Assembly: GCA_041653615.1 (NCBI GenBank)
Contig: JBAZEZ010000005.1
Location: forward strand, 23,289 to 87,288
Reading direction: 5' to 3'
DNA length: 64,000 nt
Source of the DNA: Candidatus Ratteibacteria bacterium
GTDB lineage: Bacteria > Ratteibacteria > UBA8468 > MWAK01
In this document: positions 7,024 to 64,000 of the stretch, one piece after another
Layout of the letters: every line of letters begins with the position of its first letter
Position numbering within the stretch: position 1 is the stretch's first letter
Notes under the pieces: model-generated
The model's database searches: none
Seen by the model: the letters and a program-made list of their open reading frames with translations, nothing else
Told to the model about the DNA's origin: nothing
Made by a program: the position numbers and the translations under genes

Positions 7024-7169
7024 TGTTCACTTTTGTTAAGGCATTTTTTGTTCAAGTATTGGTACAAATTTGTGCAGTATGTACAAATTGGAACGCATGT
7101 TTGATTTTTCTTTGATAACATTTTGACAAAAACAGCGTATTTATGTTCTAATATTGGAAACGTTGCAAT

Positions 7170-7257
7170 ACGGGGAGGTCGTAAAAGCGGCCTGAGAGTT
7201 TCGAGAAACCATCGGATAACCCGCGGAACCTGATCTGGATAATGCCAGCGTAGGGAA
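7170..7257 (+). ncRNA. TPP (THI-box) riboswitch aptamer
   Basis: ACGGGGAGG...GCCTGAGAG...AACCTGATCTGGATAATGCCAGCGTAGGGAA matches the THI-box consensus (CTGAGA; ACCTGATCTGGATAATGCCAGCGTAGGGAA). Confidence 0.85.
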
Positions 7258-7275
7258 AAAAGTTCAGATGTTAAT

Positions 7276-37996: not shown

Positions 37997-38045
37997 AATA
38001 AAAAACCCCTTAGGCAGGCGGTATCGCATGCAATAAGGGGTGTCC
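37997..38045 (-). terminator. intrinsic terminator of the second TPP riboswitch
   Basis: The mRNA sense reads GGACACCCCUUAUUGCAUGCGAUACCGCCUGCCUAAGGGGUUUUUUAUU. Confidence 0.6.
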
Positions 38046-38057
38046 AGGTTCATGCTT

Positions 38058-38146
38058 CTTCCCTCCGCTGGTATTACCCAGATCAGGTTCTGCGGGTTAT
38101 CTGTTTACTTCTCAGAACTCTCAGGCCGCTCTTACGACCTCCCCGT
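38058..38146 (-). ncRNA. TPP (THI-box) riboswitch aptamer, second copy
   Basis: The reverse complement reads ACGGGGAGGUCGUAAGAGCGGCCUGAGAG...AACCUGAUCUGGGUAAUACCAGCGGAGGGAAG, roughly 85% identical to 7170-7257. Confidence 0.85.
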
Positions 38147-38203
38147 TTAATTATTGATAATATTAAAGCATACCTGCGCTGTTACTGTCAAAATTTTGCA
38201 GCG

Positions 38204-50172: not shown

Positions 50173-51459
50173 ATGTTAATTATGCGGAGAAAGACGGCGC
50201 TTTTTGTTTTTGCTGCCCTGTTGTTATTTCAAACTAAAATAATTTTAGCCGGCCCGATTCAGACGGGTGACCGCCTTACTTTGGAAAAATGTCTGGATAT
50301 TGCCCGGACAATGAATCCGCAAATACTGACCGCGGAACAGGCGGTAAACGCAAGTCAGAGCAGAATCGGCCAGGCAAAGGCAAACTATTATCCTCAGCTA
50401 AACGTATCTTCCGGATACAATCACGGCTGGTCTTCGACCGGAACCGCCTCGGGTTCTTCGGACCAGTTTTCAGCCAATATCGGAGTCAGCCAGAATATCT
50501 GGGATTTCGGCAAGACATCCACCCAGGTAAAAGTTTCCAACCTAAACCTGGATTCGGCTTCTTTCAACCTCGGTAATGTCTCCAGCCAGATAGTCCTGCA
50601 GGTAAAACAATATTATTATCAACTTCTCCAGGCTCAGAAGGCCGAAGGAGTTTCCCGGGAGGCCGTGGCGCAATACCAGAAGCATTTGGAGCAGGCGCAG
50701 GGATTTTACGAAACCGGCCGAAGCCCCAAGTTTGACGTGACTAAGGCGCAGGTTGATCTCGGTAATGCCAGGCTGGACCTGATAAACGCGGAGAACGCTT
50801 CCCGGATTGCCCTGGTTAATTTGAATAATGCCATGGGTCTTTTGGACGCGCCCGAATATACGGTGGAAGACAATCTTGCCCTCCGGCACCCGGAAATTAT
50901 TCTGGCGGATGCCTTGGAAACCGCCTATCGGAACCGGCCGGACTTGAACGCGGCTGTTACCCAACGCGAAGCAGCCGGTTTATCGGTGGACCTCGTCCGA
51001 AAGGGTTACTACCCGACCTTGTCCGGTAGTGCCGGCTACGGCTGGTCCGGCGGAAATTTCCCCCCGGGTAACGATAGTTGGAGCGCCGGAGTTACATTAT
51101 CCGTTCCGATTTTTAACGGGTTTTCAACTAAGTACAAAGTGGATGAGGCCGGCGCTAATTTTCAAGCGGCCAAGAGCCAGGAAGAGACCGCGAGACAAGG
51201 TGTATCTCTTGATGTGAAACAGGCTTATTTAACTCTTCAAAGCGCGGAGGCTAAAATTCCGGTGGCGGAACTGACCGTTACCCAAGCCAGAGAAAATTTG
51301 GAACTGGCAAACGGCCGGTACGAGGCCGGAGTCGGCAGTCCGATTGAGGTGACTGACAGTCAGGCGGCTTACAGCCAAGCGCGATATGCCTATATTCAGA
51401 CCCTTTATCAATATCAGATTGCTCAAGCCGGTCTGGACAAAGCAATAGGAGTACAATAA
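50173..51459 (+). CDS. TolC-family outer-membrane efflux protein
   Basis: It has a signal peptide and two OEP repeats, paralogous to 45639-46916. Confidence 0.8.
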   Translation: MLIMRRKTALFVFAALLLFQTKIILAGPIQTGDRLTLEKCLDIARTMNPQILTAEQAVNASQSRIGQAKANYYPQLNVSSGYNHGWSSTGTASGSSDQFSANIGVSQNIWDFGKTSTQVKVSNLNLDSASFNLGNVSSQIVLQVKQYYYQLLQAQKAEGVSREAVAQYQKHLEQAQGFYETGRSPKFDVTKAQVDLGNARLDLINAENASRIALVNLNNAMGLLDAPEYTVEDNLALRHPEIILADALETAYRNRPDLNAAVTQREAAGLSVDLVRKGYYPTLSGSAGYGWSGGNFPPGNDSWSAGVTLSVPIFNGFSTKYKVDEAGANFQAAKSQEETARQGVSLDVKQAYLTLQSAEAKIPVAELTVTQARENLELANGRYEAGVGSPIEVTDSQAAYSQARYAYIQTLYQYQIAQAGLDKAIGVQ

Positions 51460-51462
51460 AAA

Positions 51463-52659
51463 ATGAACAAACCAAACAAAAAGAAAAGATTGCTGGTTTT
51501 CGGTTCTATTCTCGCGATTTTGTTTTTGGTCATTCTGGCGGTTAAAATCGCGAAAAACAAGGAATCGGCGCCCAAGTTCCGCACCGAAAAGGTGACCCGG
51601 GGAGATGTTGTTACCACGGTTACGGCGACCGGCGCCATTAATCCGGTGACCACCGTCCAGGTCGGTACCCAGGTTTCCGGCACCATCAAGCGATTGTTCG
51701 TGGATTTTAATTCCACGGTGCGGAAAGGGCAAATGATTGCCCAGATAGACCCGACCTCCCTTGAGGCTCAGGCGGAACAGCAGCGGGCCGGTCTTATTTC
51801 CGCAAAGGCTAACGTAATCAAAGCGCAGGCGTCTCTCCTTGATGCCGACCGGACTTATAAACGCGACCAGGAACTCTTTTCCCGGAACCTGATCGCGCGC
51901 AGCGAATTGGACGTTGCCGAAACCAACTACCAGGCGAATGTGGCTTCGGTTGACGCGGCCAAGGCCCAGGTGACTCAGGCGCAGGCGTCTCTGAAGTACG
52001 TGGAGACCAACCTTGGTTACGCGAGGATAGTTTCTCCGGTGGATGGAATCGTTATCTCCCGCAATGTTGACGTTGGTCAGACGGTGGCCGCCAGTTTTTC
52101 AACGCCGACCTTGTTTACTATTGCCCAGGACTTGACCAAGATGCAGATTGACGCCAGCGTGGCGGAAGCGGATATCGGAAGCATCAAAAACGGCCAGCCG
52201 GTGGAATTTACCGCCGACGCTTATCCGGAGGATATATTTCACGGCTCGGTCTGGCAAATTAGAAATGCGGCCATAACTGTTTCAAACGTGGTTACCTATG
52301 ATGTAGTAATCAGGATGGATAATAAGGACTTGAAGTTAAAGCCCGGTATGACCGCCAACATTTCGTTTATTATTTCCACCCGGAAGGGCGTTCTGCGCGT
52401 GCCGGACGGCGCCTTAACTTTCATTCCTTCAGACGTTAAATCTAATGGCAAGTCAAAGGATAGGGGGGCAGGGGTCTGGATTCTCCAGGACGGAAAGCCG
52501 AACCGAGCCGGGGTGACTACGGGTGAAAGCAACGGTACTTTTACGGAAATTACTTCAGGTCAACTGCAGGAGGGTGGCTTGGTAATAACCGGTTATCTTG
52601 TTTCGCCTAAGAATAATTCCGGGAACAACTCAGGGCAGCGTCCGCCCAGAATGTTTTAG
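51463..52659 (+). CDS. MacA-like periplasmic adaptor (HlyD family)
   Basis: An N-terminal TM is followed by a coiled-coil hairpin and beta-barrel. It lies upstream of an ABC ATPase and FtsX permease. Confidence 0.8.
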   Translation: MNKPNKKKRLLVFGSILAILFLVILAVKIAKNKESAPKFRTEKVTRGDVVTTVTATGAINPVTTVQVGTQVSGTIKRLFVDFNSTVRKGQMIAQIDPTSLEAQAEQQRAGLISAKANVIKAQASLLDADRTYKRDQELFSRNLIARSELDVAETNYQANVASVDAAKAQVTQAQASLKYVETNLGYARIVSPVDGIVISRNVDVGQTVAASFSTPTLFTIAQDLTKMQIDASVAEADIGSIKNGQPVEFTADAYPEDIFHGSVWQIRNAAITVSNVVTYDVVIRMDNKDLKLKPGMTANISFIISTRKGVLRVPDGALTFIPSDVKSNGKSKDRGAGVWILQDGKPNRAGVTTGESNGTFTEITSGQLQEGGLVITGYLVSPKNNSGNNSGQRPPRMF

Positions 52660-52780
52660 CCCAATTCGCCTTCATTCATATAGCGGCGTTGGCTTCGTCA
52701 GCAGCTTCCTCGGCGTACTTCCGTGTAAGCCTGCGTCGCTGCTTCCTTGCCGCCTTGTTCTATTTTTGAAGGCGAATTGG
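52660..52780. mobile_element. MITE-like element, family B, copy 2
   Basis: cccaattcgccttcattcatatagcggcgttggc...tatttttgaaggcgaattgg. It begins 1 nt after the macA-like stop. Confidence 0.65.
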
Positions 52781-52800
52781 TATAAATTTCGGTATAAATT

Positions 52801-53493
52801 ATGACTCTGCTTGAACTTTCCGGAGTATCCAAGGTTTATAATTTGGGCGATGTCAGTGTGACCGCGCTCAATAATGTTTCGGCTAACGTGGAAGAAGGTG
52901 ATTTCCTGGCGATTATGGGTCCCTCCGGTTCCGGGAAGTCAACCTTTATGAATATTGTCGGTTGTCTGGATAAACCAACTTCCGGACGTTATTTGCTGGA
53001 AGGCAAGGAAGTCGGCCGGCTGGACCGGGACACCCTGGCCGCCGTCCGGAATGAAAAACTCGGTTTTGTCTTCCAGGGTTTTAACCTTCTTTCCCGAACT
53101 TCAGCTTTGGAGAACGTGGAACTTCCGATGCTTTATTCCGGGGTTCCTTCGGGAGAGAGAAGGCGCAAAGCTTTAGCCATGCTTAAGTCCGTAGGTTTGG
53201 AAGGCAGGGAAAGACATTATCCCAACCAATTATCCGGCGGGCAGCAGCAGCGGGTCGCCATCGCCCGGGCCATCGTCAACGACGCAGCGGTTTTACTGGC
53301 CGACGAACCGACCGGGAACCTTGATACTCATACCAGCGCTGGAATAATGGAACTCTTCGTAAAACTCAATCGCGAATCTGGCATTACCGTTATCCTAGTA
53401 ACTCACGAACCGGATATCGCCGCGTACAGCAAACGTATCCTGAGATTTTTGGACGGTAATATCATTGCCGACGAAAAAAGAAGCCTGATATGA
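52801..53493 (+). CDS. MacB-like ABC transporter ATP-binding protein
   Basis: [24 protein letters not shown] and [11 protein letters not shown] are present. Confidence 0.85.
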
Positions 53494-54719
53494 TTAGCGT
53501 AAGCGCCACTATCAAAATTTCCCTAAGGGCTTTGCAGACCAACAAGATAAGGTCAGGCCTTACCATCCTGGGTATTGTGATTGGCGTGGGCGCGGTAATC
53601 GCCATGCTGGCCATCGGCAATGGTGCGCGTCAGCAGATTACCGACCAGATTTCCAGCATCGGTAGTAATCTTTTGATGGTGCGGTCCGGTTCGTCCGCTT
53701 CCGGAGGGGTAAGAATGGGCGCCGGTACTCAACCGACCCTGACCTTGCTGGACGCGGAAGCAATTATAAAAGATTGCCCTTCGGTAACCGCGGCCGCTCC
53801 GGTAGTTAACGGCGGAGCGCAGGCGATAAACGGCAATAAAAACTGGTCAACTTCCGTCACCGGAAGCACTCCGGACTTTTTAGAAGTCAGAGATTGGCAG
53901 GTGGCCGAGGGCCGTTCGATAACCGACCAGGACGTTCGGAGCGCGGCCAAGGTCTGCCTGTTGGGCGCCACCGTGGTTGACAACCTCTTTGGTGACCAAC
54001 CTCCGACCGGTAAGGTCATCCGGCTTAAAAATATGCCCTTTATGGTGGTTGGCATGCTGGCCAGCAAAGGTCAGTCGGCGATGGGCCAGGACCAGGACGA
54101 TGTCATTATAGTGCCGGTAACGACCGCCCAGAAGAAGCTCTTCGGCACTTCTTTTCCCGGAATGGTTAATACCATTACGGTGAAGGCGAACAGCGCCGAA
54201 GGAACCAAATCGGCGCAACAAGAGATAGAGAACCTTTTAAAACGCAGGCACCACATCGGTTTGGGAAAAGACCCTGATTTTACGGTCCGCGACCTTACCC
54301 AAATCATGCAGGCCGCCGAACAATCCAGCCAGGTTATGACTATTCTGCTGGGCGCTATCGCTTCCATCTCGCTGTTGGTGGGCGGAATCGGCGTGATGAA
54401 CATAATGCTGGTCTCGGTTGCCGAGCGGACCCGTGAAATCGGCATTCGGATGGCGGTTGGCGCCAAGACTTGGGACATACGCCTCCAATTTATCACCGAG
54501 GCCCTGACCCTATCCCTCATCGGCGGAATTATCGGAATCATGTTTGGCGTAATCGGCGCCAAGGTTATTTCCGTAAAGGCCGGCTGGCCGACCGCCGTGT
54601 CGCTTTCCTCGATTATGATGTCCTTCGGTTTTTCCGGTTTCGTGGGCATCTTCTTCGGTTTCTACCCCGCCTACAAAGCTTCCCTGCTTAACCCCATCGA
54701 CGCCCTCCGGTACGAATGA
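53490..54719 (+). CDS. MacB-like ABC transporter permease (FtsX family)
   Basis: An N-terminal TM and periplasmic domain are followed by three TM helices and a C-terminal ...LNPIDALRYE. Confidence 0.85.
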   Translation: MISVSATIKISLRALQTNKIRSGLTILGIVIGVGAVIAMLAIGNGARQQITDQISSIGSNLLMVRSGSSASGGVRMGAGTQPTLTLLDAEAIIKDCPSVTAAAPVVNGGAQAINGNKNWSTSVTGSTPDFLEVRDWQVAEGRSITDQDVRSAAKVCLLGATVVDNLFGDQPPTGKVIRLKNMPFMVVGMLASKGQSAMGQDQDDVIIVPVTTAQKKLFGTSFPGMVNTITVKANSAEGTKSAQQEIENLLKRRHHIGLGKDPDFTVRDLTQIMQAAEQSSQVMTILLGAIASISLLVGGIGVMNIMLVSVAERTREIGIRMAVGAKTWDIRLQFITEALTLSLIGGIIGIMFGVIGAKVISVKAGWPTAVSLSSIMMSFGFSGFVGIFFGFYPAYKASLLNPIDALRYE

Positions 54720-54820
54720 AATTGATATAAATACAATCAATGTCGTTGACTTAAAAAAAGAATATGGCTTAAAATAACCCTATCTTCTTTTATTTCTCCT
54801 CTATAAAACAGATTAATAGA

Positions 54821-56428
54821 ATGAAAAAGAACTGTTGGTGGAGATGTTGCTTGATAGCCGGGTTTTTATTTTACCTGGCTGGGTGTTCGGCGCAGCATTA
54901 TCGGGAAAGCGCGGACCGCGAGGTTTACCGCATCCTGGCGGAGAAGAAGGGGCCGGGTCCGGTGGTTTCTTTTGATATTGAACCAAAAAGTCCGCCGGTT
55001 TTTTTGCCGGGCGAGATAAAAGAGGTCGGCCTGCGGGAAGTGCTTCAGCTGGCAGCCCTGCACAGTCGGGAATATCAGGATAGGAAGGAGAGTCTTTATC
55101 TGCAAGCGCTTAGTCTCACGGCCCAGCGCCACAACTATCGGCCCAGGTTTGGCGCTGGTATCAACGTCGACTGGACAACCGCCGGTAAGGACAGTGTGAG
55201 TGTTGCCGGCGATTTTTCGCTTGTCCAGTGGTTGGCCGACGGCTCCCAGGTTACCCTGAATCTGGGTACGGATTTTTTACGGTATCTGACCGGCGACCCG
55301 CAAGAGTCGCTCGGTTCGCTCTTGAGCCTTAATCTCCTGCAGCCTATTTTTCGGGGCGCCGGTCGACGGGTTGCCCGGGAAAATCTCACCCAGTCCGAAC
55401 GGGATGTTGTTTACGCCATCCGCTCTTTTTTGCATTATCAGCGCACCTTTTCGGTTGCAATTACCACCAATTACTATCAACTCCTGGAGCAGAAGATGGT
55501 GTTGTCTAACGAAGAGAATAATTATCAGCAATTGGTGGCAAATCGCCAGCGCAGCGAGATGCTGGGTGAAGCCGGTCGTTTACCCCTTTTCCAGGTGGAT
55601 CAAGCCCGCCAGGATGAGTTGAAAGCTTACGAACGGATGATTTCGGCCCGCACAATTTACCAGGAAGAGGTTGACCAGTTTAAGGTTTTGTTAGGATTGC
55701 CGGCTAACGCCGCCATTCGTTTCAGCGACAAGGAGGCCGAGGAGTTGACTACCCGGGCACTGCCGGTTCTCCAGCTGGACCTGGCGCAGGCGCTCAAGAT
55801 ATCTTTGCAAAACCGGCTGGATCTGATGAGCGCCCTGGACGCGGTTGAGGACGCCGGTCGCAAAGTGACGGTTTCCCGGGATAATCTTCGGTCCGACCTT
55901 TCGTTTGTTGGCGCTGCCAGCGGTTCGACACCGGAGGATGAAAACACGGTTCTAAAATTTGAATCGAATAAAGTTGATTACAGCGCCGGTTTGCATCTGA
56001 ATTTACCCGTTGACCGGTTGACGGAAAGGAATAGTTATCGCCAGAGTTTAATTTCTCTGGAACACAGCCGCCGCAACCTGTCTTTGGTGCAGGACAGCGT
56101 TTCTTTGGGAATGCGCACCGCCTGGCGCAACCTGGAACAAGCCCGGCAGAGTTACGAAAATCAAAAGATCAGTTTAGCGTTGGCGCAACGGAGGGTGGAG
56201 AGCACTAACATGCTGCTGGATGCGGGCCGGGCATCCCAGCGGGACCTTTTAGAGGCACAGAGCGCCAGTCTGCAGGCACGCAACAGCCTTCTGGCGGCAA
56301 CGGTTGATTATCTTTCCGCCGACCTGGCTTTTTTGCGGGACGCAGAGATGCTGGAGATTGGCAGCAATGGTGTTTGGACGGGAGATTGGAATGCGCAAAC
56401 TAATACGGATACAGAGATTAAAAACTAA
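54821..56428 (+). CDS. TolC-like outer-membrane efflux lipoprotein
   Basis: The lipobox FLFYLAGCS is followed by OEP-like repeats. Confidence 0.65.
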   Translation: MKKNCWWRCCLIAGFLFYLAGCSAQHYRESADREVYRILAEKKGPGPVVSFDIEPKSPPVFLPGEIKEVGLREVLQLAALHSREYQDRKESLYLQALSLTAQRHNYRPRFGAGINVDWTTAGKDSVSVAGDFSLVQWLADGSQVTLNLGTDFLRYLTGDPQESLGSLLSLNLLQPIFRGAGRRVARENLTQSERDVVYAIRSFLHYQRTFSVAITTNYYQLLEQKMVLSNEENNYQQLVANRQRSEMLGEAGRLPLFQVDQARQDELKAYERMISARTIYQEEVDQFKVLLGLPANAAIRFSDKEAEELTTRALPVLQLDLAQALKISLQNRLDLMSALDAVEDAGRKVTVSRDNLRSDLSFVGAASGSTPEDENTVLKFESNKVDYSAGLHLNLPVDRLTERNSYRQSLISLEHSRRNLSLVQDSVSLGMRTAWRNLEQARQSYENQKISLALAQRRVESTNMLLDAGRASQRDLLEAQSASLQARNSLLAATVDYLSADLAFLRDAEMLEIGSNGVWTGDWNAQTNTDTEIKN

Positions 56429-58178
56429 GTTGGTATTTTGGGCTAAAATACCCCCAAAAAGAAAACGTTTGTTTATTTGGCTTTTTCCGGCGGTGATTAT
56501 TTTGCTGCTCGTCCTGATGCTGGGAGGCCGGAAAGAAAAGACCACGGAGTTGACCTGGCGGGTCCAGCCGGGCGATTTAAGGGTGACGGTGTTGGAAGGC
56601 GGAACGCTGAAAGCGGTGCGGAGCCAGGATATCCTTTCTGAAGTTGAGGGGCAGAGTACGATTCTGGATATTGTGCCGGAAGGGACCGTGGTGACCGAGG
56701 AAGATATTAAAAATGGTAAGGTGCTGGTGCGCCTGGATTCTTCCCAGATGAGAGAGAGATTAGCCCAGGAAGAGATTAATTTACAGAATGCGGAGACAAC
56801 GCTGACCGATGCCCGGGAAGGTCTTCAAATCCAGGTTAACCAGAATGACACCAACGTTCGAAAAGGCGAATTGAGTTTGACTTTTGCCAGGATGGAACTG
56901 GAAAAGTATCTGGGCAGCCGTTTGACGGAGACGGTGTTGAAGCAGAAAGGTGAAGTCAAACCCGGAGAAATTTTTGCCAGCCCGGACCTGGAGGGCGAAG
57001 CTCAGCGCCAGATGAAACAGTTCAAGAATGCGATAGATTTGGCCAAAGAACAGCTTTCCCGCGACCAGGACCGTTTGAATTGGACCAAAAAACTGGTGGA
57101 GAAGGGCTACGCAACCCGGGGAGAACAGGAGGCCGATAATCTGGCAGTTCAGCAGCGGCAGGTGGAAACCGAGCAGGCCCAGACCGGGTACCTTCTTTTC
57201 AAGAACTATGATTTTCCCAAGGAATTGGCAAAGCGGTTTTCCGATTTTCGGGAAGCCGGAGAAGAGTTGACCCGTATTAAGGCCAATGCCCGGTCTCAAG
57301 AATCCCAGGCCCGTAACCGATTGGTGACCCGGCAAGCCTCTTATGTATTGACGCAGGATCGGGTCAAACGTTATCAGACCCAGGTGGAAAAAAGCATTAT
57401 TGTCGCCACCCAGCCAGGCATCGTGGTTTATGCCAGCAGTGCTAATCCTTTTCGATCAGGTCAGCCCATTCAGGCCGGCGCTACGGTTTATCAGCGCCAG
57501 GCCATTATTACCTTGCCGGATATTTCCCAGATGTCGGTGGAACTAAAAGTACCGGAGTCTTCCATTGATAAGATTCGGGAAGGGCAGACGGCACGGATTA
57601 CGGTGGATGCTTTCCCGGGTATGTCTGTTGCCGGCAAAGTAAGCAAGATGGCGCTTTTGCCGGATGCCACCATGCGTTGGATGAACCCGGATATCAATGT
57701 GTACGCGGTAGAGGTTGTTCTGGACCAGGAAATGCCGGACCTGCGGCCCGGAATGTCAACCCAGGTGGAGATATTGGTGGCTGAGCTTAAAAATGTTCTT
57801 TTGATTCCACTTTCGGCGCTCCATGTTTCAGACGGTAATTACTCGTGCGTTAAGATGGTCCGGCGCCGGTCGGTTGAGGTTCCGGTGGTAATCGGATTGA
57901 ATAATGAGAATTTTGCCGAAGTGAAAAGCGGCCTGAAGCGCGGAGATGTGGTATTCCTATCCGGAGCTGCTACTCTGCCGACGCTGGTGTCGGAAACGCC
58001 GAAAATGGAAAAGGTTGCGCCGGATAATGAGGGAATCGCTAAAGAACAGCCTGTTTCCAAACAGCCGATAGAACCGGTCGGCGGAAAGACCGGCGGGAAA
58101 ACCAGTGTTGAAAATGGCGGTGGCGCACCGGCTCCGGTTCGGCAAAGGCCGATTATCCGGGAAGAAAAACTAAAATAA
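56391..58178 (+). CDS. long HlyD-family periplasmic adaptor (coiled-coil rich)
   Basis: A TM helix (LFIWLFPAVIILLLVLML) is followed by a long coiled-coil, a beta-barrel and a Pro/Gly-rich C-terminus. The start is set at MRKLIR; the longer ORF overlaps the upstream OMP. Confidence 0.65.
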   Translation: MRKLIRIQRLKTKLVFWAKIPPKRKRLFIWLFPAVIILLLVLMLGGRKEKTTELTWRVQPGDLRVTVLEGGTLKAVRSQDILSEVEGQSTILDIVPEGTVVTEEDIKNGKVLVRLDSSQMRERLAQEEINLQNAETTLTDAREGLQIQVNQNDTNVRKGELSLTFARMELEKYLGSRLTETVLKQKGEVKPGEIFASPDLEGEAQRQMKQFKNAIDLAKEQLSRDQDRLNWTKKLVEKGYATRGEQEADNLAVQQRQVETEQAQTGYLLFKNYDFPKELAKRFSDFREAGEELTRIKANARSQESQARNRLVTRQASYVLTQDRVKRYQTQVEKSIIVATQPGIVVYASSANPFRSGQPIQAGATVYQRQAIITLPDISQMSVELKVPESSIDKIREGQTARITVDAFPGMSVAGKVSKMALLPDATMRWMNPDINVYAVEVVLDQEMPDLRPGMSTQVEILVAELKNVLLIPLSALHVSDGNYSCVKMVRRRSVEVPVVIGLNNENFAEVKSGLKRGDVVFLSGAATLPTLVSETPKMEKVAPDNEGIAKEQPVSKQPIEPVGGKTGGKTSVENGGGAPAPVRQRPIIREEKLK

Positions 58179-58874
58179 ATGGTTGAACAAAACAAAAAAA
58201 TACCGGCGATACAGTTGGAAGAAATCAGCCGGATTTACCAAATGGCGGCAGGCGAGGTAGCGGCCCTGGCGGGAATTAATCTCACAGTGGAACAGGGTGA
58301 ATACATGGCGATTATGGGTCCATCCGGTTCCGGCAAAACAACCCTGTTGAATCTGCTGGGCTGCCTGGATCAGCCCACCGGCGGACGATATTATCTCGGC
58401 GGAGAAGATGTTTCGGCGCTTCCCGACGACCAGCTTTCGGAAATTCGCAACCGCAAAATAGGTTTTATATTCCAGTCGTATAACCTGATTCCGGAATTGA
58501 CCGTTCTGGAGAATATTGAGATTCCACTTTTTTACCGGAATCCTCATGACTCGGACGGACTTCAACGCGCGGTCCGCCTGGCGGAAATGGTCGGCCTCGG
58601 CAGCCGTTTGGACCACCGGCCGGCCCAACTCTCCGGCGGGCAACAGCAACGGGTGGCTATCGCCCGCAGCCTGGTAAATGACCCGCTTATTATTCTGGCG
58701 GATGAGCCGACCGGCAACCTTGATTCCACAACCGGGCAGGAGATCCTTTCCGTCCTGCAGGAGATGCATCGTCAGGGTAAGACGCTGGTGGTTATTACTC
58801 ACGACATCAGCGTGGCGCAACACTCTTCCCGAATAATTAATATTGTGGACGGGCACATAAAAGAACAAAACTAA
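58179..58874 (+). CDS. MacB-like ABC transporter ATP-binding protein
   Basis: [24 protein letters not shown] and [11 protein letters not shown] are present. Confidence 0.85.
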
Positions 58875-60166
58875 TGATACTTCCTTTATTCTTTCAGCGG
58901 AACCTGACGGTCGGTTTAAAAAGTCTCTGGCACCGGCGGCTCCGTTCTTTGCTGACGGTTCTGGGCATCGTTTTTGGCGTGGCTTCCGTTATCGCGATGC
59001 TGGCTATCGGCGAAGGCGCCAGTTACGAGGCCCAGCAGCGGATTAAACAGATGGGCAGTTTGAATATCATCCTGCGCAGCGTCAAAGCGCCGGTTGGCGG
59101 TCCGGGTGCTAAGAAAAACACCCAAAGCACATCGGGTATGTCGATAGACAAATATGGTTTACTCCGGAGCGATTTTTCCCGGCTTAAGACCATTCCTTCG
59201 TTAAACCAGTCGGCCCAGTTGCGTCGGACAAGGGAGACGGTCTGGCAGGGAGAGTGGAGCTTTCCCGGACAACTGGTATCGACCAACCCAAGTTATTTTC
59301 AACTGGTCAGCCTCTCTTTGGCGTCCGGCCGGTTATTTAATGAAGATGACAATCTCCATCGGTCCAATGTGGCGGTGCTGGGCGCCGGCCTTGCCCAAAA
59401 ACTTTTCCCACTGGGCGGCGGTCTCGGGGAGACTGTCCGGGTTAAAAGGAACTATTACCGGGTAATCGGAATCTTATCGGACCGCAGTATCTCCGGCGGC
59501 GGGTCTACGGTGGCGACGGAAAACGTCAATTATGAAATTTACATCCCGTTCTTAACCGGAATGAGCCAGTTTGGAGAGTTCATTTTTAAAAATGAGGCGG
59601 GAAGCGTTCAGCGGGAATGGGTGGAATTGCACGAAATAGTGCTGAAGGTTGGTTTGGAATCCGACATTCCGGCAACCGTTAGTTTAATCTCGGCGGAGTT
59701 GAAGAGAAGCCATAAGGCGGATGACTACGAGATTATGGTGCCTCTGGAACTTCTAAAACAGGCCGAGCAGACCAAGCGTATTTTTAATATTGTCCTGGGG
59801 TCTATCGCGGCTATTTCGCTGTTAGTGGGCGGCATCGGCATCATGAATATTATGTTGGCCAGCGTTATGGAACGGATTCGGGAAATCGGTCTGCGCCGGG
59901 CTTTGGGCGCCCGCAAGCGGGATATCGTAACCCAGTTCCTGTCCGAGGCGGTAATTCTTTCCGCCATCGGCGGTGCTATCGGCGTTATCCTGGGAATTTT
60001 TGTCCCGGCGCTGGTTACGCGCGCTACCGGCATGAAGACAATCGTTACGCTCTGGTCTCCCATCCTTGCCTTTGCCATTTCCGCGGCCATCGGAGTTATT
60101 TTCGGTTTCTATCCGGCCCGTTCCGCGGCCGAGTTGGACCCGATAACCGCTTTGCGCAACGAATAG
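58874..60166 (+). CDS. MacB-like ABC transporter permease (FtsX family)
   Basis: It has the same architecture as 53490-54719, with a C-terminal ...LDPITALRNE. Confidence 0.85.
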   Translation: MILPLFFQRNLTVGLKSLWHRRLRSLLTVLGIVFGVASVIAMLAIGEGASYEAQQRIKQMGSLNIILRSVKAPVGGPGAKKNTQSTSGMSIDKYGLLRSDFSRLKTIPSLNQSAQLRRTRETVWQGEWSFPGQLVSTNPSYFQLVSLSLASGRLFNEDDNLHRSNVAVLGAGLAQKLFPLGGGLGETVRVKRNYYRVIGILSDRSISGGGSTVATENVNYEIYIPFLTGMSQFGEFIFKNEAGSVQREWVELHEIVLKVGLESDIPATVSLISAELKRSHKADDYEIMVPLELLKQAEQTKRIFNIVLGSIAAISLLVGGIGIMNIMLASVMERIREIGLRRALGARKRDIVTQFLSEAVILSAIGGAIGVILGIFVPALVTRATGMKTIVTLWSPILAFAISAAIGVIFGFYPARSAAELDPITALRNE

Positions 60167-61934: not shown

Positions 61935-62103
61935 CTCAAAACGGCGGGGAGGGAAATAGCTGCCCGGTGAGGATTCGGCGGTTTCGGCTTCACCGCGCCT
62001 CAACTCGGCCACCCGCTGGCAACGTTCCCTATTCGGTCGCCTCGCCTGACTTCGCTCCCCTCGAATCCTCAATACCCGGGCTTTAGGCGGGATTAAAATT
62101 GGG

Positions 62104-62174
62104 CTGCCCGGTGAGGATTCGAACCTCAACGCCCAGCTTCAAAGGCTGGTGTGCTACCATTACACAACCGGGCA
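62104..62174 (-). tRNA. tRNA-Gln (anticodon UUG)
   Basis: The reverse complement reads TGCCCGG-TT-GTGT-AATGGTA-GCAC-A-CCAGC-CTTTGAA-GCTGG-GCGT-TGAGG-TTCGAAT-CCTCA-CCGGGCA-G. The cloverleaf has 7-bp acceptor and 5-bp anticodon and T stems. CCA is not encoded. Confidence 0.8.
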
Positions 62175-62183
62175 ATAACTATA

Positions 62184-62214
62184 GTGAATAGTGAACTGTG
62201 AACAGTGAACGGTA
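62184..62214. repeat. left GTGAA-rich inverted repeat flanking the four-helix-bundle cassette
   Basis: AGTGAATAGTGAACTGTGAACAGTGAACGGTAA is an imperfect reverse complement of 62606-62634. Confidence 0.6.
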
Positions 62215-62219
62215 ACAGA

Positions 62220-62606
62220 CTAAACTGCTGTTTTTAGTTTTCTAACCAATCCTGAAATAAGCTTGAAAGTTGTGGTTGTCAACGAAACAGTATCTTTGTA
62301 ATTACGTTCATTTAGATAGTTTAACTTTAACGATATTTCCAGTTGTGTGTCAAGTTCACTTAAAGAACCTTGAGATATACTCAGAAATTGTAAGAATTCC
62401 TTCGTAGAATTACGTGCTGCTCCTTCCGCAATATTACTGGCAACCGATACTGCACATCTGCGCATCTGATTCGTCAATCCATAAATTTCTTCTTTTGGGA
62501 AAAGGCTTGTTATTTTGTAAATTATTTCCGTTAGTTCTATAGATTTTTGCCACACTTCCAATTTTTTATGCGGTCTTACTGCTTCATTTGTTTTATCTTT
62601 TTCCAT
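62220..62606 (-). CDS. four-helix-bundle protein (23S rRNA intervening-sequence protein family)
   Basis: ...LEVWQKSIELTEIIYKITSLFPKEEIYGLTNQMRRCAVSVASNIAEGAAR... matches the characteristic family (Q.RRA.SI..NIAEG). It is flanked by inverted repeats. Confidence 0.7.
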   Translation of the reverse strand: MEKDKTNEAVRPHKKLEVWQKSIELTEIIYKITSLFPKEEIYGLTNQMRRCAVSVASNIAEGAARNSTKEFLQFLSISQGSLSELDTQLEISLKLNYLNERNYKDTVSLTTTTFKLISGLVRKLKTAV

Positions 62607-62634
62607 TCACCGTTCACCATTTACCATTCACTGC
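62606..62634. repeat. right GTGAA-rich inverted repeat flanking the four-helix-bundle cassette
   Basis: TTCACCGTTCACCATTTACCATTCACTG overlaps the start codon. Confidence 0.6.
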
Positions 62635-62636
62635 TT

Positions 62637-64000
62637 TTAATGTCGAAAATGGCGCTGGCCGGCCATAACCATTATCATTCCATATTTTTCCGCGGCGGCC
62701 AGGACCTCGGCGTCTTTCTTGGAACCGCCCGGGTGGATGATGGAAATCGCGCCTTCCTTAGCAACCACTTCCAGGGCATCCGGGAACGGGAAAAAAGCGT
62801 CGGAAGCCACCGCGGCTCCGGAGACGTCGAATCCGAAACCTTTTGCTTTGGAGACCGCAATCTTGGCGGAATCAACCCGGGACATCTGGCCGGCTCCAAT
62901 GCCGATGGTCTGGCCGCCTTTTACCAGAATGATGGCGTTGCTCTTGGTGTATTTAGCCACCAGGTAAGCAAACTTCATCTCTTCCAGTTGAGCCGCGTCC
63001 GGGGACTTGACGCTGACCACCTTCAGTTCCGAAAAAAGGGCGGTGTCAACGTCCTGGACCAGAAAACCGCCGCTTACCTTCCGAAAATCGAATTTCCCCC
63101 CTTCTTTTTTGGGCCAACTCAACCGCAGTACCCGGATATCCGGTTTCTTTTTGAAGATATTAAGTGCCGTCTCGTTGTATTCCGGAGCAATTACGCATTC
63201 CACAAAACCGGTGATAATTTCAGCCGCGGTATCTTCGGCTACCGGACGGTTTAGCGCTACGATGCCGCCGAAGGCGCTGACCGGGTCGCAGGCGCGCGCT
63301 TTCTGGAAGGCGGTCAGGATATCCGGGCCAAGCGCGACACCACAGGGGTTATTGTGCTTGACGATTACCGCCGCTTCCGGGTCTAATTCCCGGACCAGGG
63401 AGAGGGCGGCTTCCAGGTCAAGGTAGTTGTTGTAGGAAAGTTCTTTGCCCTGGAGTTGTTCGGCGTCGACCAGGAGCCCGATTTCGGAACGGAAACTCTT
63501 TTGCCGATAGAGACTGGCTTTCTGGTGAGGGTTCTCGCCGTACCGCAAATCCGCAATCTTTTCCAGGAGCAGGGAGATTCGGGCCGGGAAAGCCGGCGCT
63601 TCTTTTTCCTGATTGAGATAAAGGGAAATAACCGCGTCATACATTGAAGTTTTCGCAAAGACCGCGGCGCCCAATTGCCGGGCGATTTCTTTTGAAATCC
63701 TGCCTTTTTTTAATTTCAGTTCGTTGATGATTGCCGGGTACTGATTTGGGTCCGAAAGGACAACCACGTCCGAACTGTTTTTGGCGGCCGCCCGCAGAAG
63801 GCTGGGACCTCCGATATCAATATTTTCAATGGCGGTCTCCAGGTTGGTTTCTTTTTTTGCCGCTACTTTTTCAAACGGGTAAAGGTTGACGCAGACCAGG
63901 TCGATTGGCCTGATTTTCTCTTTTTCAACTTCTTCGCGGTGTTTCGGAACTTCCCGCCGGAAGAGAATGCCGGCAAAGATTTTGGGGTGCAGGGTTTTAA
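62637..64000 (-). CDS. purH: bifunctional AICAR transformylase / IMP cyclohydrolase (partial; the N-terminus lies beyond the window end)
   Basis: The C-terminal AICARFT domain ends ...MVMAGQRHFRH. Upstream, in frame to the window edge, it reads ...LKTLHPKIFAGILFRREVPKH, a classical PurH motif. Confidence 0.9.
   Translation of the reverse strand, partial: KTLHPKIFAGILFRREVPKHREEVEKEKIRPIDLVCVNLYPFEKVAAKKETNLETAIENIDIGGPSLLRAAAKNSSDVVVLSDPNQYPAIINELKLKKGRISKEIARQLGAAVFAKTSMYDAVISLYLNQEKEAPAFPARISLLLEKIADLRYGENPHQKASLYRQKSFRSEIGLLVDAEQLQGKELSYNNYLDLEAALSLVRELDPEAAVIVKHNNPCGVALGPDILTAFQKARACDPVSAFGGIVALNRPVAEDTAAEIITGFVECVIAPEYNETALNIFKKKPDIRVLRLSWPKKEGGKFDFRKVSGGFLVQDVDTALFSELKVVSVKSPDAAQLEEMKFAYLVAKYTKSNAIILVKGGQTIGIGAGQMSRVDSAKIAVSKAKGFGFDVSGAAVASDAFFPFPDALEVVAKEGAISIIHPGGSKKDAEVLAAAEKYGMIMVMAGQRHFRH

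Follow-up and report, generated by a model that had tools for sequence, protein, structure and literature searches.

Organization of the purH–tRNA-Gln spacer

The present work concerns a 64-kb stretch of a Candidatus Ratteibacteria contig (hereafter the window), in which a small gene of the PF05635 four-helix-bundle family lies between purH and a glutamine tRNA gene and is bordered on each side by a short array of tandem repeats. These arrays are termed the 5' and 3' arms, and arms and gene together are referred to as the cassette. All the relevant features are encoded on the minus strand, where they follow one another in the order purH stop codon, 5' arm, PF05635 gene, 3' arm and tRNA-Gln. 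The host gene purH (AICARFT/IMPCHase), whose 3' part occupies 62637..63767 (profile match, E = 2.4e-109), terminates in a stop codon at 62637-62639; it is the upstream gene and shares the transcription direction of the cassette gene. The 5' arm (62603..62633) begins 4 nt past this stop codon and comprises about four heptamers, which read on the minus strand CAGTGAAT GGTAAAT GGTGAAC GGTGAAT GG. The cassette gene itself extends over 62220..62606 and codes for 128 amino acids, its ATG (62606-62604) falling within the 5' arm. The 3' arm (62183..62215) reads TTACCGT TCACTGT TCACAGT TCACTAT TCACT on the same strand, i.e., the complement of GTGAAY heptamers, and ends 7 nt short of the host tRNA-Gln (UUG; 62100..62175), which is located directly 3' of it. 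An earlier note on this DNA had placed the gene between the purH stop and tRNA-Gln, with the right-hand repeat overlapping the start codon, and both statements hold.

The GC content of the cassette open reading frame (ORF) is 34%, versus about 49-50% in its surroundings. Its product matches PF05635 with 132.9 bits (cut-off 33.8; E = 6.5e-39), residues 14-118 aligning to profile positions 1-105 of 106, which confirms its proposed membership in the protein family of the 23S rRNA intervening sequences (IVSs). It also scores above the cut-offs of TIGR02436 (126.3 bits vs 24) and NF008911 (138.1 bits vs 137). The closest solved relative is 2GSC (XCC0516 of Xanthomonas campestris; E = 8.1e-33, residues 7-120), followed by 2RLD (E = 3.6e-05), and an identical 128-residue protein is recorded in a Candidatus Ratteibacteria metagenome-assembled genome (MAG). 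The PF05635 family is strongly conserved, with 24 invariant alignment columns, and basic, with a pI of about 9.2. Profile searches of the protein matched PF05635 and bAvd-like models only, and revealed neither a nuclease, recombinase or transposase domain nor the signature of an HUH (Y1) transposase.

No rRNA match occurs in the window, and the cassette thus sits outside any of the 23S rRNA helices (9, 25, 45). Further copies of the gene or of its arms, the counting of which the earlier note had envisaged, are absent from the 64 kb. Integrase, transposase and reverse transcriptase genes are likewise absent from the 12 kb on the side away from purH, the sequence past position 64000 being unseen. 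An Rfam search at E values up to 10 returned the tRNA and two riboswitches, and no family for the arms or the cassette; PADLOC gave no defence-system match. In a promoter and terminator scan the counts remained at chance level, and no terminator-like site was found between purH and tRNA-Gln.

Inverted heptamer arms and their predicted stem

The earlier note had described a pair of imperfect inverted repeats around the gene. Both strings exist, AGTGAATAGTGAACTGTGAACAGTGAACGGTAA at 62183-62215 and TTCACCGTTCACCATTTACCATTCACTG at 62606-62633, although every coordinate originally given was one base off. The repeats were also thought to be iterations of a GTGAA(C/T) pentamer; the unit is instead a heptamer, NGTGAAY, repeated with a period of 7, with about four units per arm and the two arms inverted relative to one another. 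A repeat search extends the inverted repeat to 43-nt arms that are 77% complementary and separated by 364 nt. The entire 64 kb contains only two period-7 tracts, both of which are the cassette arms, and the motif GTGAAYNGTGAAY (up to one mismatch) matches the window seven times, six of them within the arms, where 0.72 matches would be expected. When the left flank is locally aligned with the reverse-complemented right flank, the score is 37, while dinucleotide shuffles give 13.5 +/- 2.3 and none of 5000 reaches 37, so that the similarity withstands the shuffled-sequence test by which it was to be judged. This score is also the best of all window pairs at that spacing across the 64 kb.

When the minus-strand RNA 62640-62176 is folded in silico, the minimum free energy and the centroid structures both close with a 28-bp stem formed by the two arms (z = -3.8), in line with the long-range stem that had been anticipated. 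In this predicted stem, 62632-62603 pairs with 62212-62183 (the 5' arm corresponding to paired positions 9-38 of the fold), with four G.U pairs and two single-base interruptions, and the ATG is included. A weak inner extension at 62216..62225 (minus strand), which takes in the stop codon, pairs with 62590-62602 and adds eight further long-range pairs.

Orthologous cassettes and empty sites

Cassettes are present at the matching purH/tRNA-Gln site in two related loci, L081 (91% protein identity) and L082 (79%). The closing stem measures 28 bp in the window, 30 bp in L081 and about 23 bp in L082. The 5' arm of the window is exactly that of L081, and the 3' arms of the orthologues carry reshuffled units, which indicates that the arms turn over by whole heptamers.

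Empty sites were sought by scanning metagenome contigs with the tRNA-Gln sequence of this lineage. In L117 the purH stop codon is followed by 5 nt and then by tRNA-Gln; the spacer measures 23 nt in L112, 45 nt in L115 and 85 nt in the more distant L111 and L116. In the terminal 255 nt of purH, nucleotide identity to the window amounts to 89.4% for the occupied L081 and to 89.8% for the empty L115. The presence of the cassette is thus polymorphic among equally close lineages, some of which run from purH to tRNA-Gln directly, and the description of the element as a discrete cassette is borne out. The difference between occupied and empty sites consists of exactly the arms and the ORF. Since empty sites lack arms and gene together, the two constitute a single discrete unit of insertion or deletion. 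No target-site duplication is evident when the occupied junctions (window, L081 and L082) are compared with the empty ones (L117, L112 and L115). The 23-nt spacer of the empty site L112 (180-205) retains one arm-like unit (AAACGGTAAG), which could be either a trace left behind by a lost cassette or a unit from which arms might grow.

The region around tRNA-Gln is a hotspot of small insertions in this lineage, as observed in L081 and L082. In the window, a 19-nt copy of the tRNA-Gln 3' end is found at 61959-61977, on the minus-strand side 3' of the tRNA. The earlier note had adduced such att-like scars as support for the mobility of the cassette. The duplicate is real, yet it is located on the far side of the tRNA: the scars are 3' of tRNA-Gln and the cassette 5' of it, and they consequently do not bear on the cassette. 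The duplicate closes a segment of about 120 nt (within 61959-62099, minus strand) which is kept in long perfect blocks in L082 and has the appearance of a short insert next to the 3' end of the tRNA. The ends of this segment pair (GCCCGGG...GAGGATTCG / CGAATCCTC...CCGGGC), but folding it gives no advantage over shuffled sequences (z = -0.2) and it has no Rfam match. L082 (566-690) harbours an extra 109-nt segment between CTCACCGGGCAGC duplicates, and this segment recurs about 230 nt further on. In L081 (740-1140), a GIY-YIG endonuclease gene has an incomplete copy of tRNA-Gln on one side and the intact tRNA on the other.

A common design in the PF05635 family

The architecture was compared among 80 loci of relatives, one genome per species, covering Bacteroidota, Proteobacteria, Acidobacteriota, Firmicutes, Planctomycetota, Verrucomicrobiota, Elusimicrobiota, the candidate phyla radiation and others, and 28 loci from viral contigs. 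On inspection, most loci have tandem arrays in both flanks of the gene. Using a strict detector, arrays adjoin the gene in 65 of 96 distinct loci (68%), as opposed to 4.9% of 978 control windows taken from the same loci, an enrichment of about 14-fold. The period of the arrays is 7 in 80 of 92 cases and 8 in most of the others, with a median of 4.4 units or about 31 nt. The heptamer varies from locus to locus (GTGAGGA, AGTGGTT, GGGAATG, GTGACGA, GGTCAGG, GTAAACG, AGTCTGG, etc.), and the two arms of any one locus agree. When the 5' flank is compared with the reverse-complemented 3' flank, three or more 7-mers are common to both in 57 of the 74 genome loci (cross-locus pairs, 15%) and five or more in 44 of the 74 (cross-locus pairs, 4.8%), and the arm alignment score is at least 30 in 48 of 73 loci. 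The inverted-array architecture is present in viral contigs as well. One viral contig (L084, 3-2483) contains an 826-codon open frame that overlaps the four-helix-bundle gene in another frame; the gene is devoid of flanking arrays there.

Cassettes of this kind reside within operons. Among the callable loci, 63 of 68 have an upstream gene that points the same way as the cassette gene, 59 of 65 have such a gene downstream, and 52 of 58 have one on each side; for genes in general, both neighbours are co-directional in roughly half of the cases. From the upstream stop codon to the start of the cassette gene the median distance is 48 nt, a gap that is occupied by the arm and offers scant room for a promoter. 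The gene is inserted between dnaK and dnaJ in a Burkholderiales MAG (L015), and between accB and accC in Xanthomonas, Pseudoxanthomonas and Luteimonas (L009, L020 and L045). In 69 of 72 loci the ORF is poorer in GC than the sequence on either side of it, the mean difference being 8 points. The analysis thereby establishes that the arms exist and are significant, that a stem is predicted from them, that the architecture extends across the family, that the cassettes lie within operons and that their presence is polymorphic.

Parallel with the Coxiella intervening sequence

The known element that most resembles the cassette is the IVS in helix 45 of the 23S rRNA of Coxiella burnetii, which is 428 nt long and holds an S23p ORF, its terminal inverted repeats pairing into a closing stem of 28 bp (PMC4990558). 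Just upstream of its ATG it carries tandem GACAGAT heptamers, in two or three copies depending on the strain, and its GC content is lower than that of the genome (PMC4990558). In vitro, recombinant RNase III from Coxiella and that from Escherichia coli both excise this IVS, the cleavage on its 5' side mapping to the first heptamer, and the authors judged the ORF to be decaying and probably untranslated (PMC4990558).

The comparison with Coxiella suggested in the earlier note proves to be close. S23p is itself a PF05635 protein, and in both elements the ORF forms the loop above a long stem, which measures 28 bp in Coxiella and is predicted to have the same length here, tandem heptamers make up the arm upstream of the ATG, the GC content is low and no mobility gene is included. 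The two differ in location, the window element being in a spacer between a protein gene and a tRNA rather than in an rRNA, and in the repeat unit, GTGAAY versus GACAGAT. They also differ in that the PF05635 family is strongly conserved here while the Coxiella ORF was considered to be decaying and untranslated. ORF-bearing 23S IVSs are found in Leptospira, Brucella and Haemophilus as well.

Given that the anatomy of the window element matches the Coxiella IVS point for point, save for its location in an mRNA-tRNA spacer, it is read here as a free-standing cassette of the IVS type. On balance, we think it probable that it represents the free-standing counterpart of the ORF-bearing 23S rRNA IVSs: a promoterless unit that occupies the purH-tRNA-Gln spacer as a single piece, would be co-transcribed with its neighbours and would form a stem cut by RNase III. 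At this locus, read-through transcription from purH would cover the cassette. Within this RNA, the 5' arm, rich in G, would pair with the C-rich 3' arm to form the 28-bp duplex, enclosing the whole ORF together with its start codon. By homology with the Coxiella element, RNase III would then cut the stem, whereby an ORF RNA of about 430 nt would be freed and the purH mRNA split from the tRNA-Gln precursor. The signature motif of RNase III is absent from the 64-kb window, which says nothing about the rest of the genome. Stem cutting may in this manner insulate the insertion from the host genes, and excision of this kind would explain why such insertions are tolerated within operons and rRNA helices. 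The arms would evolve through the gain, loss and reshuffling of whole heptamers; their pairing would survive this turnover because tandem units pair in any register.

Small inverted-repeat elements that fold into hairpins in transcribed spacers have precedents. The Correia/NEMIS elements of Neisseria and the ERIC elements of enterobacteria are MITE-like inverted-repeat elements located in operon spacers, where they are co-transcribed and form long hairpins. In the case of Correia, RNase III cleaves the hairpins and thereby changes how stable the neighbouring mRNAs are, and the element duplicates its TA target. Correia and ERIC elements are nevertheless devoid of an ORF, have a fixed terminal sequence and occur in many copies per genome, whereas the window element contains an ORF, carries locus-specific heptamer arms, is present as a single copy in the 64 kb and shows no target duplication. 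The gene cassettes of integrons, which carry a single attC at the 3' end and are arrayed beside an integrase and attI, are different again, since here the repeats are found on both sides of the ORF, no integrase occurs in the 12 kb away from purH, and the cassettes are solitary in core operons.

Several observations weigh against the RNase III-processed, IVS-type cassette. The start codon would be sequestered in the predicted stem, and the authors of the Coxiella study took their ORF to be probably untranslated; the protein family is nonetheless strongly conserved. At 62353-62324, within the ORF, lies a promoter-like site from which tRNA-Gln could be transcribed independently, such sites being no more frequent than expected by chance. 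In arm alignments across loci, the mismatches show no excess of the G.U type that is tolerated in the sense RNA (65 vs 93), and base-level selection for pairing of the sense strand is therefore not demonstrated. When the duplex energies of long arms are compared, sense and antisense are favoured in 45 and 28 loci, respectively (p = 0.10), a comparison dominated by GC content. At L006, L036 and L090 (two Flavobacteriales genomes and one viral contig) the arrays, of up to 11 units, are direct rather than inverted, so that a closing stem is impossible there. Moreover, RNase III cleavage at this locus is inferred from homology, and co-transcription is likewise an inference. Two further points, the shared core of the heptamers and the fixed polarity of the arms, are best considered together with the principal alternative.

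Alternative explanations

The arms may instead be recognised sequence-specifically, as terminal inverted repeats or as arrays resembling operators, perhaps by the basic, pentameric four-helix-bundle protein itself or else by another factor, acting on DNA (mobility) or on RNA (autoregulation), with the stem and its cutting by RNase III being secondary. We regard this as possible, though not as the expected outcome. When aligned by rotation, the heptamers of all phyla share a core, A-G-T-G/R-A-N-N, with 3.96 bits versus 2.99 +/- 0.10 for the null, and in 30 loci the G-rich array precedes the gene and the C-rich array follows it, with one locus reversed; pairing alone needs neither a core nor such a polarity. 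The AGTGA core and the fixed polarity of the arms hint at sequence-specific recognition. Because an inverted repeat reads alike from both strands, the G-rich-first polarity belongs to the repeat and not to the orientation of the ORF. A C-rich arm transcribed first might act as a loading site for Rho, which is one possible reason for the polarity. A Shine-Dalgarno origin of the AGTGA core and of the G-rich 5' polarity was considered and rejected, as the arrays bind the anti-Shine-Dalgarno tail no better than their own shuffles, and scrambled probes behave alike. The direct arrays at L006, L036 and L090, like the basic character of the family (pI of about 9.2), would fit recognition, and bAvd, a homologue of PF05635 proteins, is presumably a nucleic acid-binding protein. 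The arm heptamers also track protein relatedness, pairs of 65-80% identity sharing on average 11.6 arm 7-mers and distant pairs 3.5-4.1, and the trend includes the cross-phylum pairs among L033, L053 and L046; this correlation would, however, also be expected from the simple co-inheritance of arms and ORF. Recognition is further opposed by the lack of any known catalytic activity and of a nuclease, recombinase or transposase domain in the protein, by the absence of a target-site duplication at occupied versus empty junctions, and by the absence of other arrays of the cassette's family from the 64 kb. Recognition of the arms and cleavage of their stem by RNase III are compatible with each other.

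Features of some genomes would also be in keeping with such recognition. In a marine biofilm MAG (L019), two paralogues (265-785 and 1492-1872) 800 nt apart have their own heptamer families, of the ATGAAYA and AGTRATY types; the first of them is also surrounded by an additional outer, nested pair of arrays. Extra arrays belonging to the family of the local cassette occur 0.5-1.6 kb away from it in L017 (2486-2566), L012 (2474-2515), L031 (3104-3140), L064 (2771-2799) and L080 (919-958). An ORF-less hairpin of the cassette's family, made of a G-rich array, 17 nt and a C-rich array, is found in Deefgea. In xanthomonads, the arms of the accB/accC gene, which is related to 2GSC, are inverted arrays of the GGGAATC type (L009, 1466-1500 and 1885-1922; L020). 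The genome-wide GGGAATC family counts about 186 arrays in Xanthomonas, with 70 inverted pairs in X. campestris, which are reported to be convergent (PMC4692102); this is also the polarity of the cassette arms. It is conceivable, though we would not expect it, that each PF05635 paralogue recognises its own heptamer family of the AGTGANN type, which borders its gene in the form of terminal repeats, and drives or maintains the spread of the arrays as autonomous cassettes, with ORF-less hairpins as derivatives, in the manner of RAYT and REPIN. If true, such a partnership would explain the movement of IVSs, the function of S23p and the origin of the STRR, GGGAATC and TAACTGA repeat families. In the REP-RAYT system, the RAYT is an HUH tyrosine transposase encoded by a single gene that is flanked by inverted copies of a short repeat. 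The likeness extends to the gene between inverted short repeats and to paralogues with their own repeat families (L019); the protein discussed here is, in contrast, a four-helix bundle with no known enzymatic activity. Dispersed copies of the repeat occur in some genomes (xanthomonads and Deefgea), and none is present in the window. The heptanucleotide families described to date (GGGAATC in Xanthomonas, GGGGAYT in Nostoc, TAACTGA in Beggiatoaceae and STRR in cyanobacteria) resemble the arms in being intergenic tandem heptamers of about four units, often arranged as convergent inverted pairs. They differ in that most of these arrays enclose no gene, and in the papers they are treated as quadruplex-forming or regulatory, with no link to PF05635.

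The remaining explanations deny the cassette its unity or attribute it to another element. It is quite unlikely, in our estimation, that no cassette exists at all and that the heptamer arrays are slippage-prone simple repeats or host hairpins in spacers, with the gene caught between them by chance. Heptamer arrays are indeed an over-represented class of bacterial simple repeats and occur without a PF05635 gene in Xanthomonas, Nostoc and Beggiatoa (PMC4692102, PMC4679880), and the control windows of the fetched loci hold arrays at the background rate of 4.9%. The arrays are, however, enriched about 14-fold beside the gene and matched between the arms of a locus, the sole two arrays of the 64 kb flank the gene, and the empty purH/tRNA-Gln sites lack arms and gene together. 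Very little probability is assigned to an origin from a diversity-generating retroelement (DGR), with the gene as an Avd accessory gene left behind on its own. PF05635 is the commonest family beside DGR reverse transcriptases (PMC10053308), and the protein shows weak similarity to bAvd (PF22296, 24.4 bits) and to the Avd equivalog NF033474 (28.7 bits). Both scores are far under the respective cut-offs of 40 and 80 bits, the best matches being to the free-standing subfamilies NF008911 and TIGR02436 and to the structure 2GSC. Avd, described as a basic pentamer, is a distant homologue with the same four-helix-bundle fold family, but it works with an adjacent reverse transcriptase and a template repeat, neither of which is among the neighbours here: on one side, 12 kb of sequence encode no reverse transcriptase, and the other side is taken up by purH, the region beyond 64000 being unseen. 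Least probable of all, in our view, is that the gene is cargo of an element integrated at tRNA-Gln. The 19-nt duplicate of the tRNA 3' end at 61959-61977 and the other small insertions around tRNA-Gln in the relatives would agree with this idea. Against it, the duplicate and the conserved 120-nt element are 3' of the tRNA and the cassette is 5' of it, no integrase is found within 12 kb on the side away from purH, and homologous cassettes reside in operon spacers without any tRNA.

Other features of the window

The neighbouring genes code for a PilZ protein, a deacetylase and two efflux operons of the MacAB/TolC type, in addition to purH. The two efflux operons are similar and follow one another on the plus strand (50173-60166), each consisting of an outer-membrane factor, an HlyD-type adaptor, an ABC ATPase and a MacB/FtsX permease. 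Both thiamine pyrophosphate (TPP) riboswitches score above the Rfam gathering threshold and are located at 7161-7274 (plus strand) and 38043-38155 (minus strand).

Significance

The existence of 23S rRNA intervening sequences with an ORF has been on record since 1993, and free-standing genes of the same protein family are annotated by the thousands as "four helix bundle protein", with no mention of their context. To our knowledge, the origin, the spread and the protein function of the ORF-bearing 23S IVSs have never been explained. The protein family, the ORF-bearing IVSs, the Coxiella heptamers with their RNase III cut, and the heptamer repeat families of a few genera are already known. A literature search, which left most subscription journals outside its range, found no work linking PF05635 genes to flanking heptamer arrays other than in the Coxiella IVS. 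What is new, as far as the searchable literature goes, is that PF05635 genes outside rRNA generally form cassettes bounded by inverted heptamer arms, that a core and a polarity are common to these arms, and that the cassettes lie within operons and phage genomes and are polymorphic in their presence.

The 23S rRNA inserts thereby appear as a special case of a much commoner element, a promoterless gene with inverted heptamer arms that inhabits the operons of many phyla as well as phage contigs and comes and goes as one unit. The old questions about IVSs become testable in cultivable hosts, such as Xanthomonas, where the accB-XCC0516-accC locus codes for a protein of solved structure, or the flavobacteria. 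For annotation and for operon biology, the cassettes may split the polycistronic transcripts of core genes, including those of dnaK-dnaJ, accB-accC and purH-tRNA.

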